From the NCBI GenBank assembly GCA_964016885.1, contig OZ024743.1, positions 143,530,001 through 143,594,000 on the forward strand: a stretch of DNA of 64,000 bases, written 5' to 3'. This document shows, piece by piece, positions 9,757 through 60,159 of this stretch. The stretch is from Eledone cirrhosa. Lineage: Eukaryota. The position numbers and the translations under genes were made by a program. The first letter of the stretch is position 1, and every line of letters begins with the position of its first letter. Below the pieces are notes generated by a model. The model did no database searches. It saw only the letters and a program-made list of their open reading frames with translations, and was not told the origin of the DNA.

Positions 9757-11125
9757 GTAAGTATGCATGTATACGTACATACATATATGTATACAGACGT
9801 ACAGTAGCATGCACATATATATATATATACACATATATACATACATATGCATACAGGTACACATACATATATGCACGTATCAGTTTAGCGGCGCTAACGT
9901 CGCTTTGTTCGTTTGTAAACAAACTGAACAGCCTGAATTTATGCCATACGGTGTTAAGGCAACCACGTCACCTTTTTGTTCAACACTGACACAGGAACGA
10001 TGTACTAGTTTCAAGCTTGTTAGCTATCATCAGCACCGTTTACCCATCTGCCAGATAGTTGAACGTTCGAAAGTATATACTTTCCTTATGAAAATTAACG
10101 GCTGAGCAGCCTAATTTGCATATTGAGTGAGTTAAATCGGTCAGGCATACCGAAAACGATAAATTAACGGCTGAGCAGCCTAATTTGCATATTGAGTGAG
10201 TTAAATCGGTCAGGCATACCGAAAACGATAAATTGCTGCTCAGCCGTTAATTTTCATAAGGAAAGTATATACTTTCGAACGTTCAACTATCTGGCAGATG
10301 GGTAAACGGTGCTGATGATAGCTAACAAGCTTGAAACTAGTACATCGTTCCTGTGTCAGTGTTGAACAAAAAGGTGACGTGGTTGCCTTAACACCGTATG
10401 GCATAAATTCAGGCTGTTCAGTTTGTTTACAAACGAACAAAGCGACGTTAGCGCCGCTAAACTGATACGTGCATATATGTATGTGTACCTGTATGCATAT
10501 GTATGTATATATGTATATATATATTTATATATATATGTGCATGCTACTGTACGTCTGTATACATATATGTATGTACGTATACATGCATACTTACATTTAA
10601 GTAAGTGCCATACTAAGAGTGAGAAATGAAATTTCGTTTTCATTTTGTTTCAATTTATCGTTTTCGGTATGCCTGACCGATTTAACTCACTCAATATGCA
10701 AATTAGGCTGCTCAGCCGTTAATTTTCATAAGGAAAGTATATACTTTCGAACGTTCAACTATCTGGCAGATGGGTAAACGGTGCTGATGATAGCTAACAA
10801 GCTTGAAACTAGTACATCGTTCCTGTGTCAGTGTTGAACAAAAAGGTGACGTGGTTGCCTTAACACCGTATGGCATAAATTCAGGCTGTTCAGTTTGTTT
10901 ACAAACGAACAAAGCGGCGTTAGCGCCGCTAAACTGATACGTGCATATATGTATGTGTACCTGTATGCATATGTATGTATATATGTATATATATATATAT
11001 ATATGTGCATGCTACTGTACGTCTGTATACATATATGTATGTACGTATACATGCATACTTACATTTAAGTAAGTGCCATACTAAGAGTGAGAAATGAAAT
11101 TTCGTTTTCATTTTGTTTCAATTTA
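9757..11125 (+). mobile_element. Hammerhead-containing 472-bp tandem repeat (retrozyme-like) with an inverted arm
   Basis: Direct units start at 10235 and 10707; inverted copy 9757-10234; one HHR per unit. Confidence 0.82.
10307..10347 (+). ncRNA. Type I minimal hammerhead ribozyme (copies 10779-10819 +, 9998-10038 -)
   Basis: cggtg CTGATGA t agct aaca agct t GAAA ctag TA catcg: stem I, core, stem II, palindromic stem III ACTAGT, GUA site. Confidence 0.85.
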
Positions 11126-13058
11126 TACATATATATATACATATATATATATATATACATATATACATATATATATATATATACATATATATATACATAT
11201 ATATATATATATACATATATATATACATATATATATATATACATATACATATATATACATATACATATATATATACATATATATATATATACATATATAC
11301 ATATATATATATATACATATATACATATATATATATACATATATATATATATACATATATATATATATACATATATATATACATATATATATACATATAT
11401 ATATATATACATATATATATATATACATATATATATACATATATATACATATATATATATACATATATATATACATATATATATATATACATATATATAT
11501 ATATACATATATACATATATATATATACATATATATACATATATATATATATACATATATATATACATATATATATATATACATATATATATATATACAT
11601 ATATATATATATACATATATATATATACATATATATATATATACATATATATATATATATACATATATATATATATATACATATATATATATATACATAT
11701 ATATATATATACATATATATATATATACATATATATATATATACATATATATATATATACATATATATATACATATATATATATATACATATATATATAT
11801 ACATATATATATACATATATATATATATACATACATATATACATATATATATATATACATATATATATACATATATATATACATATATATATATATACAT
11901 ACATATATACATATATATATATATATACATACATATATATATATATACATATATATATACATACATATATACATATATATATATATATACATACATATAT
12001 ACATATATATATATATATACATACATATATATATATATACATATATATACATTCATATATATATATATACATATATATATATATACATATATATATATAT
12101 ACATATACATATATATATATATACATGTATATATATACATATATATATATATATACATATATATACATATATACATATATATACATATATACATATATAT
12201 ACATATATATACATATACATATATATACATATATATACATATACATATATATACATATACATATATATATATATACATATATATACATATATATACATAT
12301 ATATACATATATATATATATACATATATATACATATATATACATATATATACATATATATATATATATATATATACATATATATATATATATATACATAT
12401 ATATATATATACATATATATATACATATATATATATATACATATACATATATATATATATACATATACATATATATATACATATACATATATATATACAT
12501 ATATATATATACATATATATATACATATATATATATATACATATATATATATATATACATATATATATATATACATATATATATACATATATATATATAT
12601 ACATATATATATACATATATATATATACATATATATATATATACATATACATATATATATACATATATATATATATACATATATATATATATACATATAT
12701 ATATATATATATATATATACATATATATATATATACATATATATATATATACATATATATATATATACATATATATATATATACATATATATATATATAC
12801 ATATATATATATATACATATACATATATATATATATACATATATATATATATACATATATATATATATATACATATATATATATATATACATATATATAT
12901 ATATATACATATATATATATATACATATATATATATACATATATATATATATACATATATATATACATATATATATACATATATATATATATATATACAT
13001 ATATATATATGCATACATACACACACACACATATATATATACATATATATATATATAT

Positions 13059-13656
13059 GGTGGCTGCCAACTCGTTTTCGAGTACGGCCACTACTTTATA
13101 TCCATGTAGGAGAACCCCACCGATGCGCTGAACGAGTGTGACTTTTTAGTGCAGTTAGCGACTTGAAAACTCTGTACAAACACTACACTTGTGACAATTA
13201 TTGACACATAGTGCTGGGACAATGGAACCATGTCACGACAAGTGCAGAGAGATCTCCAGATATAAAGCAATGCCTGTGCCGTGAAGCTTTTATAGTGAGC
13301 AAAGGCACTGCACAAAGCCAGTCCACTCTCTTAACTAAGATGATATTTACCAAAAAGAAGAACAAGTCAACATCATTAGATACCATTAGGGCTACAGGAG
13401 TTATATCAGAGTTTTCCTTCTCCTAGAATTCTGCCTTGACAAAGGCTAAGGAGTCATCTCTCCCGGTGATTTTGGATGGCCATTGACTCTTAAGAGCTCC
13501 TTTGCCCTTTTGACAGGTTTTGTTTTTAGTCCTGCAGGATGTCCAAAGTCAGCCTCCTCACCAAGAAACCTTGGTGGGGTTGCCAGTTTAGTCGCCAACG
13601 ACCCGACCATGAGACAGGTTGTACTGGTATACATGTTACCAGTAGCACCAACTGCA
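13059..13656 (-). mobile_element. ~600-bp non-autonomous element/SINE with RTE-derived 3' tail
   Basis: 3' 150 bp matches 26621-26786 (C2H2-like CSVC...H...H remnant, as at the end of the BovB-like RTE at ~62700); 5' part matches 55434-55490. Confidence 0.55.
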
Positions 13657-13730
13657 TATATATATACATACATATATATATATATATACATATATATATA
13701 TACATACATATATATACATATACATATATA

Positions 13731-14027
13731 TCATCATCATCATCATCACCGTTTTACGTCCGTTCTTCCACGCTAGCATGGGTTAGACGGGTTGTCCTGT
13801 TGTGGGCAGTGTCTGGTCGGCTGACCATGCCTTGCTCATACAGGAACTGATCTGGCTTGATTTCTACAGCTGGATGCCCTTCCTAACACCAACCTCATTT
13901 ACAGGGAGTGCTGGGTGCTTTTTCGTGGCGCCTACACGTCCACTTTACAGTGTGGGCTGGGTGCTTTTTTGCCGTGGCACCTCCACGACCACCTTGCGGT
14001 GGGGGGAGTGGGGGCATATTGTTTATA
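13731..14027 (-). mobile_element. RTE family B 3' UTR fragment
   Basis: Matches 1201-1497. Confidence 0.9.
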
Positions 14028-14130
14028 TGCATACATATATATATATACATACATATATATATATATATATATACATATATATATATATATATACATATAT
14101 ATATATATAAATACATATATATATAAATAC

Positions 14131-58094: not shown

Positions 58095-58312
58095 ATTATT
58101 AGAAATGTAAGCTATCGCCGTATTTTGACTAAAAAAATTAAAGAAATTATTTAGCCTGATAGTGGGGTTAAGAACCCTCCATTTCTCCGAGGGTTCTTAA
58201 CCCCACTATCAGGCTAAATAATTTCTTTAATTTCTTTAGTCAAAATACGGCGATAGCTTACATTTCTAATAATTTCAAACCAACTCGCTGTTTCGAAAAT
58301 ATCCTTACTTGA
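58095..58312. repeat. Foldback with ~85-bp arms, no HHR seen
   Basis: Apex ~58184. Confidence 0.75.
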
Positions 58313-58328
58313 TATATATATATATATA

Positions 58329-59562
58329 TTTTGGATTTAATGCTCTGAAATAGCGATATATATGTGAAGACAAACATAGAATATTCGAAAATATTCTGTA
58401 TGTTTATAATAAACATTTTGAAGACCCAATCGCTATAGAATAGAATACGTCACGTATTACAATTTGAGATTCTCGATAAAAGCAAGGGAAGTAACCTACG
58501 CGTTTCATTCTTATTAGAAATCATCAGGATTACATATCCAATGCTTTTATCGAGAATGACACAGCTAGAGACTTATAGAATACTTAGCTGTGTACAGGAA
58601 CTGGTTTGAAAGAGCGGTAGCCGGTCCGGCAGAAATTAGAATTTGGATTTAATGCTCTGAAATAGCGATATATATGTGAAGACAAACATAGAATATTCGA
58701 AAATATTCTGTATGTTTATAATAAACATTTTGAAGACCCAATCGCTATAGAATAGAATACGTCACGTATGTAATCCTGATGATTTCTAATAAGAATGAAA
58801 CGCGTAGGTTACTTCCCTTGCTTTTATCGAGAATCTCAAATTGTAATACGTGACGTATTCTATTCTATAGCGATTGGGTCTTCAAAATGTTTATTATAAA
58901 CATACAGAATATTTTCGAATATTCTATGTTTGTCTTCACATATATATCGCTATTTCAGAGCATTAAATCCAAATTCTAATTTCTGCCGGACCGGCTACCG
59001 CTCTTTCAAACCAGTTCCTGTACACAGCTAAGTATTCTATAAGTCTCTAGCTGTGTCATTCTCGATAAAAGCATTGGATATGTAATCCTGATGATTTCTA
59101 ATAAGAATGAAACGCGTAGGTTACTTCCCTTGCTTTTATCGAGAATCTCAAATTCTAATACGTGACGTATTCTATTCTATAGCGATTGGGTCTTCAAAAT
59201 GTTTATTATAAACATACAGAATATTTTCGAATATTCTATGTTTGTCTTCACATATATATCGCTATTTCAGAGCATTAAATCCAAATTCTAATTTCTGCCG
59301 GACCGGCTACCGCTCTTTCAAACCAGTTCCTGTACACAGCTAAGTATTCTATAAGTCTCTAGCTGTGTCATTCTCGATAAAAGCATTGGATATGTAATCC
59401 TGATGATTTCTAATAAGAATGAAACGCGTAGGTTACTTCCCTTGCTTTTATCGAGAATCTCAAATTGTAATACGTGACGTATTCTATTCTATAACGATTG
59501 GGTCTTCAAAATGTTTATTATATACATACAGAATATTTTCGAATATTCTATGTTTGTCTTCA
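58329..59562 (+). mobile_element. Hammerhead-containing 312-bp tandem repeat (retrozyme-like) with an inverted arm
   Basis: HHRs start at 58770, 59082 and 59394 (+) and span 58491-58533 (-). Confidence 0.88.
58770..58812 (+). ncRNA. Type I minimal hammerhead ribozyme
   Basis: gtaatc CTGATGA t ttct aata agaa t GAAA cgcg TA ggttac. Confidence 0.9.
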
Positions 59563-59973
59563 TATATATATATATATATATATATATATATATATATATA
59601 TATATATATATATATATATATATATATATACGATATTAATAAATGGAAACTATATTTATAAAACCATATCTATTTCATCATACATATTTCAGGGATACCA
59701 AATTAAATTATGGTATGCCTTAATCAGACAAAATACAATATATAACAGTTTTACAAATAAGCTTAGACGTACGCTTTGGCTTCCAAAAATAATGGTCGCA
59801 TTTTAAAAGGGTACGTCAAAGCTTATTTGTAAAACTGTTATATATTGTATTTTGTCTGATGAAGGCATACCATAATTTAATTTGGTATCCCTGAAATATC
59901 TTCTCCGTTTTTTCTTTGCTTGTTTCCTTAAAGTTGACCATCATTCCGTTGGTATACCTCAATTACGCAATTT

Positions 59974-60031
59974 ACACCTGAAGATGTCATCGGGTTATTA
60001 CGCAACCTGGTCACTGAAATGCGCATAGTGT
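59974..60031 (+). ncRNA. Type I hammerhead ribozyme
   Basis: acac CTGAAGA [imperfect stem II] GAAA tgcgca TA gtgt; palindromic stem III ATGCGCAT. Confidence 0.7.
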
Positions 60032-60159
60032 TTGCAGAAATAAATAATTAAGGAAATACAACATATTTGGCCTCGTGTCATTCCACTTTATAATATATAT
60101 ATATATATATATATATATATATATATATATATATATATATATATATATATATATATAAA

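Follow-up and report, generated by a model that had tools for sequence, protein, structure and literature searches.

Head-to-head, one-tailed insertions in a hammerhead and Penelope-like element system of Eledone cirrhosa, and how they may be made

Penelope-like elements (PLEs) are the sister group of the telomerase reverse transcriptases (RTs). How their inverted, one-tailed insertions are made has been stated as an open question (PMC3846280, PMC8557442, PMC11167929), and the same question is raised by a 64,000-nt stretch of contig OZ024743.1 from Eledone cirrhosa (positions 143,530,001 to 143,594,000; hereafter the window), in which fragments of coding PLEs, head-to-head foldbacks and tandem arrays carry predicted hammerhead ribozymes (HHRs) and lie among (TA)n tracts. 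Based on the footprint described below, we consider it likely that the foldbacks arise when a Penelope-type dimer with RT and GIY-YIG endonuclease domains cuts both DNA strands and primes two cDNAs on one uncleaved RNA.

A first-pass annotation of the window had counted about ten HHR sites with (TA)n borders and inverted arms, and had proposed a comparison with shuffled sequence, which the HHRs withstand. A type-I descriptor (core CUGANGA or U3-A8, GAAA, NUH, and stems I to III in type-I order) detects 14 motifs of seven families in the window, as opposed to a mean of 0.04 and a maximum of one in 100 block-wise dinucleotide shuffles, and a stricter version detects 11 (0.04 in shuffles). Likewise, 109 blind tiles of 10 kb at round coordinates hold 94 motifs, against 0 to 3 when shuffled, or about 86 per Mb, a rate that by extrapolation gives about 2.6x10^5 hammerhead motifs in the 3.0-Gb genome; the density of the window, 14 motifs per 64 kb where 5.5 are expected (bootstrap P=0.064), is typical of the genome and not exceptional. 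A (TA)5 run lies at most 400 nt downstream of 85 of 109 motifs obtained with a wider stem III setting, compared with 26% of random positions, and the (TA)n borders and inverted arms were confirmed at the window carriers. All motifs reported here have the ordinary type-I block order, the one order covered by the descriptor; a permuted hammerhead, type SGC, with the block order S-G-C has been described (PMC10085705). Rfam hammerhead models gave no match in the window at the gathering threshold, and the best 150 of the 1086 matches in an E-value scan are to microsatellite and hairpin/miRNA models only. The sampled loci (L numbers) amount in total to 1.87 Mb, or 0.06% of the genome, and most of those that are not tiles were picked for their likeness to copies in the window; duplicate loci and those that overlap the window were dropped (15 for the arm comparison, 17 for the later family, junction and end counts).

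In each family with enough copies the 3' end falls at one of two positions, a long and a short end 35-135 nt apart; PLE-B displays one position only. Among 212 foldbacks of 12 families, 174 combine one long with one short end, two have two long ends, four have two short ends and 32 are unclassifiable, the last including eight F7 copies whose short end was misplaced in end classing. The 59 foldbacks of the blind tiles follow the same rule (47 long/short, no long/long, two short/short, ten unclassifiable), and so do coding copies of PLE-A. The two arms of a copy also resemble each other more closely than they resemble other copies. In fact, arms are 95-100% complementary in the window palindromes, divergence in family C3 is 0.056 within a copy and 0.147 between copies, and 55 of the variants shared among C3 copies are mirrored on both arms with 16 one-armed, where 59 one-armed sites would be expected under random pairing. 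Head-to-head junctions unite members of the same family in 207 of 210 cases; of the three others, judged by eye, one is a single family split over two references and another looks nested. The clearest cross-family junction, at L065:8662-8918, is a possible head-to-head chimera of the 58095 family and F1. A loading of two RNAs of separate origin by HHR dimers, each RNA from its own locus, was considered and rejected, as the arms are mirrored. Center junctions differ among near-identical copies (center counts for F3 and F4 come mostly from center-biased loci, and a tail-only genome search for F3, which did not return the family's own window copy, was uninformative), and in the blind tiles 29 copies have a short arm that extends further 5', four have a tail arm that does so, and in 14 both are equal. 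In F4, F6 and F9 the cleavage site is not marked by a peak of 5' ends, and short C3 copies lack the HHR core; insertion probably does not depend on cleavage by the ribozyme.

Such palindromes might instead be DNA-transposon-like foldback elements or miniature inverted-repeat transposable elements, or assembly artefacts, with HHR matches due to chance. The near-complete complementarity of the arms and the lack of an Rfam HHR match would suit this explanation, but shuffled sequences contain almost no motifs, the asymmetric ends fall at fixed positions common to many loci while the junctions vary, and coding PLEs have the same ends. Instead of symmetric terminal inverted repeats around a fixed internal sequence, a one-sided tail and a variable center are found, and we regard this explanation as hardly credible.

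Under dual priming, the RT/GIY-YIG dimer would cleave both strands at (TA)n and each DNA end would prime on the same RNA, one cDNA presumably starting at the end of the tail and its partner 35-135 nt inward of that point. Of the two enzymes, the inner one would run ahead, and the two cDNAs would meet near the 5' end of the RNA and be joined there, so that the predicted product consists of an antisense arm, a center, a sense arm and a single tail, with mirrored variants. Each insertion would supply fresh (TA)n flanks and thereby give rise to nests. In accordance with this scheme, the Poseidon element PAc of the anole has been reported to use two RT start sites in vitro that bound the tail, with extension of both strands, a predicted dimer and an uncleaved RNA as template (PMC11167929). 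That paper, in the text available, leaves inverted insertions unexplained, and the genomic counts presented here point to the way in which the two starts are paired. An alternative is self-priming, in which a single template, either antisense RNA or the first cDNA, gives rise to a hairpin and one of its arms is trimmed by the endonuclease at an internal site. It accounts for mirrored arms and palindromic centers, some of which coincide with natural hairpins (C3), and it is the published proposal for rotifer PLEs (PMC3846280), the tail being ascribed by Craig et al. to endonuclease-mediated resolution (PMC8557442). However, fold-back of a tail-primed cDNA requires a tail arm that extends at least as far 5' as the short arm, and the blind tiles display the reverse (29 vs 4), although a version based on antisense RNA with trimming of either arm is unaffected; moreover, the in vitro start sites on sense RNA match both ends of the tail (PMC11167929). 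Accordingly, we rate self-priming as quite improbable.

PLE-A, PLE-B and PLE-C encode an RT followed by a CX2-5CxxC linker and a GIY-YIG domain, as read from motifs in the translations; among four PLE fragments Pfam gave RVT_1 just below the cut-off in one and nothing in the other three. An HHR stands directly behind the endonuclease in all 11 linked cases of PLE-B (ACGT) and all five of PLE-C (AGAACT), and in agreement with the claim that two window motifs lie in 3' untranslated regions (3' UTRs) of RT/GIY-YIG PLEs, those at 45330- and 32357- are 3' of PLE open reading frames (ORFs) with no intervening TA run. PLE-A has only a weak HHR-like motif, which fails the descriptor. It is a young family, many copies of which score identically, and its copy at L141:2537-6187 has a 1217-aa open frame whose N-terminus spans the short end and the tail, as in the anole PAc, where the tail also lies within the ORF start (PMC11167929). 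The N-terminal part of this frame contains a long asparagine-rich insert; inserts of this kind have been described for rotifer PLEs (PMC3846280). A full-length Hydra-clade PLE was found in a blind tile (L156; C4:320000001-320010000), with DKT, a CxCX5C linker, CxxC and CxH, a (TA)n end and a U3-A8 HHR in both pseudo-long terminal repeats (pLTRs), 5230 nt apart; its frame is broken into two parts, and the ORF is followed by some 2 kb of uncharacterised sequence. The published Hydra clade is alike in all these motifs, in the HHR of both pLTRs and in the (TA)n end (PMC8557442), whereas most foldbacks are tied to it by a tail stem only. In three loci the endonuclease of a Hydra-clade PLE lies upstream of family C3 (blastx, E 1e-8 to 1e-14), which is therefore the 3' end of such an element. 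The proposed linking of each family to an ORF thus succeeded for PLE-B, PLE-C and C3, while for F3-F9 no linked ORF was found in the 1.87 Mb, nor was a Hydra ORF found within the window.

The stem in question, RCTC/GAGY, lies a few nt behind the short end in eight tails (F5, F6, F8, F9, C3, the 55647 family and two more) and in 0.2-0.8% of shuffled tails each; it is seen by eye only in F4, F7 and C8, and both the ACTC/GAGT and the GCTC/GAGC forms are present. Excluded from the scoring were F1, F7 and PLE-C, with misplaced short ends, C8, with a stemless reference, and F4, where the partner lies beyond the 70-nt limit. The pLTR of the Hydra PLE of L156 contains such a stem, another lies immediately behind the long end, and the foldbacks that carry this stem are probably moved by Hydra-clade enzymes. 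At the opposite end, the 5' hot spot of C3 lies 24-26 nt behind a TATA-like box situated inside ribozyme stem II, and F6 copies start where stem I begins, 29-30 nt behind the TATA-like TATAAATA; short C3 copies, which start at their hot spot, consequently lack the core. TATA-like and CCAAT boxes are visible upstream of the 5' hot spots in L301 and L075 (C3) and in L027 and L142 (F6). These hot spots are probably transcription starts in the pLTR, in which case many foldbacks would be short copies of pLTR transcripts, from start to tail, and not independent satellites.

An independent origin is what the first-pass annotation had favored, with autonomous PLEs accompanied by non-coding satellites. 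Its picture of many families, (TA)n targeting, PLE involvement and, for F1 and F2, non-coding tandem units stands, while its extension to all foldback families as dedicated non-autonomous satellites lacking a coding master appears rather unlikely. It would be in keeping with the missing ORF next to F3-F9, with the lack of detectable similarity among families or to the ends of PLE-A, PLE-B and PLE-C, with the 423-3190 first-look candidates per searched foldback family, which are not copy numbers, and with the shared 5' end of F8 about 90 nt upstream (no ORF upstream in 13 loci). On the other hand, C3 looks no different (82 foldback hits) and yet proves to be a Hydra 3' end in three loci, which leaves the label of non-coding satellite unproven for the foldbacks. 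Long 5' extensions, at least 296-936 nt in length, are present in F4, F6 and F9, which may therefore be ordinary pLTR products, and in a sample of this size rare masters would escape.

Several observations weigh against dual priming by Hydra-type enzymes or limit its reach, the first being that all the evidence is genomic and drawn from sequence. Over all seven families tested, 94 variants are mirrored and 96 are one-armed (166 expected by chance), many of the latter being homopolymer, end or CpG-type sites as judged by eye, and the likeness of the arms could have come later, via intramolecular conversion. In F6, the A6G change (CTGGTGA vs CTGATGA) is confined to a single arm in 8 of 12 query-biased copies and in 2 of 29 tail-anchored loci, which fits no single-template model. 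No tail stem was scored in F1, F2, F3 and the 58095 element, nor in PLE-A and PLE-C; the 5' hot spot of F9 lacks a TATA box and that of F4 has only an AT-rich stretch; F3, F5 and F7 have no 5' extension outside the foldback, as walks re-enter the inverted arm; F4, F6 and F9 have no ORF in the sampled loci; and the tie to a Hydra endonuclease concerns C3 only. The arm that bears the F6 change may be the tail arm or the short one (57930-57940; L162-L173, L211, L212), and the change could be due to editing, to a polymerase hot spot or to the use of two templates. We tentatively go further and hypothesize, at close to but just short of an even chance, that integration by Hydra-type PLE proteins depends on two-ended priming, both starts using one and the same uncleaved RNA at sites set by the RCTC/GAGY stems, with the enzyme of the short site ahead, and that most of the genome's hammerhead motifs are short start-to-tail by-products of pLTR transcripts or stem-carrying hitch-hikers, the U4A family included.

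The tandem arrays F1 and F2 differ from the foldbacks in organization. Their units (472-476 nt and 312 nt, respectively) are non-coding, are arranged in tandem and contain an HHR each, their folds are stable (z=-9.45 for F1, z=-4.15 for F2), and longer arrays occur elsewhere, with at least five units at L009 and 17 motifs at L273. In a comparison of F2 with four contig sets, two sets of one organism contained many copies and two under other labels a single contig of low depth each, which is not counted as evidence. Among the foldback families, a tandem arrangement was found in one of 127 F6 matches and in none for F3, F4, F5, F7, F8 and F9, where the upstream sequence is foldback, TA or other. 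By their structure F1 and F2 are non-LTR retrozymes. For animals, 16 families of these per genome, with units of 150-450 bp, and an origin from PLEs have been reported (PMC7229834; bioRxiv 10.64898/2026.07.22.740005), the derivation from PLEs being the subject of a 2026 preprint by Li, Clavereau and Pollet (bioRxiv 10.64898/2026.07.22.740005). F1 and F2 agree with these in their tandem non-coding units, in the type-I HHR of every unit and in the stability of the fold, whereas F1 slightly exceeds the reported unit length, the short foldbacks are not tandem, and both arrays are two-armed with the long and short ends of PLEs. In fact, the window insertions of F1 and F2 follow the long/short rule, and we hypothesize that these non-coding tandem retrozymes use the same route of integration as the foldbacks. 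The words "tail" and "palindrom" do not appear in the text of Li et al. as available (bioRxiv 10.64898/2026.07.22.740005).

The most surprising claim would have been that stem III palindromes form a family-specific dimerization code against cross-cleavage or co-packaging. The six palindromes listed for the window are present in its sequence; one of them, ATGCGCAT in the F8 copy (59978), is private to that copy, being absent from 13 others of which ten carry ATGTGCAT. Clustering of 356 motifs resulted in 34 families, 22 of them present in at least two loci, and the code would find its best argument in the 15 of these 22 with a self-complementary and mostly distinct stem III, together with the rarity of cross-family foldbacks (3/210). 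Nevertheless, seven of the 22 have no palindrome, coding PLE-C among them, ATATGTAT is common to two separate families, and F8 itself varies between ATGTGCAT, ATGCGCAT and ATGTACAT. Five pairs of families are cross-compatible where 1.6 are expected for random palindromes of the same length (P(null>=obs)=0.02), which indicates no avoidance between families. That unrelated families should differ in their palindromes is the null expectation, and subfamilies of C3 with the same loop have diagnostic sites that are almost all mirrored, so that a single template explains why chimeras are rare. The sequence data speak against the code, which is unsupported and seems to us very unlikely to exist; the palindromic stem III is probably the known feature of PLE dimers, drifting independently.

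Hammerheads in PLEs, palindromic dimers, tails and PLE-derived retrozymes are already published. Endonuclease-positive PLEs are described with a pLTR, an inverted 5' copy, a one-sided tail and (TA)n targets, the pLTR being sufficient in trans (PMC8557442; PMC3846280), and the elements of E. cirrhosa share with them the head-to-head copies, the tail at a single end, the targets, an HHR near the 3' end and the TATA-like pLTR box. They differ in the tail, 30-40 nt as published and 35-135 nt here, and in the hundreds of short copies per family, which make the end rule, the mirroring of arms and the 5' extent countable. Minimal PLE hammerheads, treated by Lunse et al. (via the review PMC6765202) and in PMC4209133, have in common with those described here a short palindromic helix III, dimer cleavage, the U3-A8 core, an extra nucleotide after A9, high diversity per genome and motifs on opposite strands 100-700 bp apart. 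The very long stems II and the family-wide U4A core of F9 set the present families apart; PMC3088659, in the text available, mentions U4C and not U4A. The shared RCTC/GAGY tail stem was not found in the descriptions of endonuclease-positive PLEs in PMC8557442 and PMC3846280 as available; nor do the published main texts, as far as available, contain a paired-end rule for two-ended priming, the tail stem, 5' hot spots linked to a TATA box or a family-wide U4A; supplements may list the families, the tail stem or U4A cores. In a limited collection searched by title and start of abstract, two-ended priming was not proposed for PLE inversions.

Seven of the ten HHR sites originally counted are complete type-I hammerheads, and the other three turn out to be damaged or variant members of real families (Table 1). 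The F7 site (~39480) fails the descriptor and is plausible by eye, with a non-palindromic stem III, and a family copy at L179 passes. At the F6 site (57923) one arm lacks stem I and the other carries A6G, in a valid family with a long stem III. The F9 sites (56965/57385) are truncated pieces of a family with the core CAGAAGA (U4A). F6 and F7 pass elsewhere as type-I hammerheads and F9 only with the U4A core, which is family-wide and accompanied by intact stems I-III (11 motifs in 111 loci of 10 kb vs none shuffled; L214, L066, L291). An F5 copy, a C3 fragment and two foldbacks lacking an HHR had been overlooked. At 59899/59900, the sense arm of F5 ends within stem III and abuts F8 with no TA run, for which a template switch or nesting is possible.

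Table 1. Hammerhead carriers, foldbacks and PLE fragments of the window (window coordinates; a minus sign after an HHR position denotes the reverse strand)
Feature	Position	Strand	Remarks
F1 two-armed tandem retrozyme	9752..11126	.	472-nt unit; HHR 10033-, 10312+, 10784+ (ACTAGT); left arm short end, right long
F4 copy, 5'-truncated, with tail	31262..31508	+	3' half of HHR only
F1 older copy	31793..32154	+	77% identity; HHR core damaged
PLE-C fragment	32165..34660	-	RT and GIY-YIG, broken, internal inversion; minimal HHR 32357- (AGAACT, no palindrome) in 3' UTR; short end
PLE-A head-to-head fragment	34660..36680	.	RT/endonuclease on - (35095-35958); 3' end with 53-nt tail on + (36441-36680); boundaries approximate
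F7 foldback	39444..39704	.	HHR core 39536- (ACC-TTC-GGT); tail on right arm
F6 3' fragment with tail	39835..39928	-	
C3 foldback, damaged	43413..43520	.	3' end of Hydra-clade PLE family; no HHR core
F3 foldback	43581..43938	.	U3-A8 HHR 43685-, 43769+ (ACCGGT); 60-nt tail right
F9 fragments	44028..44110	.	
Perfect palindrome centered on TA run	44112..44295	.	no relative in 1.87 Mb of sampled loci
F4 foldback	44582..45167	.	HHR 44915-, 44969+ (ACGATCGT, 116-nt stem II); 135-nt tail left; center at 5' strand of stem I
PLE-B fragment	45220..47400	-	RT, CX4CxxC linker, GIY-YIG; minimal HHR 45330- (ACGT) in 3' UTR; 5' boundary approximate
Further HHR-family foldback	55647..56300	.	truncated downstream of ribozyme; 88-nt tail, GCTC/GAGC stem
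F9 tail fragment	56330..56389	-	
F9 fragment	56957..57012	-	core CAGAAGA (U4A); stem I weakened
F9 fragment	57385..57454	+	5'-truncated, no stem I
F6 foldback	57860..58055	.	long-stem-III family; both arms damaged; 66-nt tail, ACTC/GAGT stem
HHR-less foldback (58095 element)	58095..58312	.	39-nt tail lacking RCTC/GAGY; PLE-A/C tail-like by eye
F2 two-armed tandem retrozyme	58330..59571	.	312-nt unit; HHR 58527-, 58776, 59088, 59400 (ACGCGT); left end long, right short
F5 foldback	59623..59899	.	family HHR ATATGTAT; one arm core-mutated, other cut off by F8
F8 copy	59900..60092	+	HHR core 59978 (family stem III ATGTGCAT); short end

The remainder of the window is AT-rich with long (TA)n tracts, and a gap of 200 N in the assembly (30758-30957) closes a TA-rich tract of 6 kb. 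Copies of long interspersed nuclear elements with apurinic/apyrimidinic (AP) endonuclease and RT lie at 3965-7114, 14518-17609, 19649-24384, 40535-43000 and 60492-62600, the first of them with a 1049-aa open frame and a PHD finger between the RT and the C-terminus. An open frame at 48191-48952 looks like the N-terminal part of a DNA transposase with a zinc finger, and the insertion between TA runs at 56390-57070, which starts with ACTAG, is one that we take to be similar to the end of a non-autonomous Helitron.

Taken together, the window belongs to a real and dense PLE/hammerhead system, the value of which lies in a countable footprint that makes the mechanism of PLE integration testable. Its short, young and abundant families offer natural substrates whose start sites are exact and whose tail stem is a candidate for recognition, by means of which dual priming and self-priming can be tested against each other. 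In addition, two-armed retrozyme arrays would add the direct evidence of a footprint to the phylogenetic argument that PLEs move retrozymes. If true, two-ended priming would explain the inverted-repeat-plus-tail signature of PLEs, and the minimal cassette required in cis would be of about 140 nt, as in F6.

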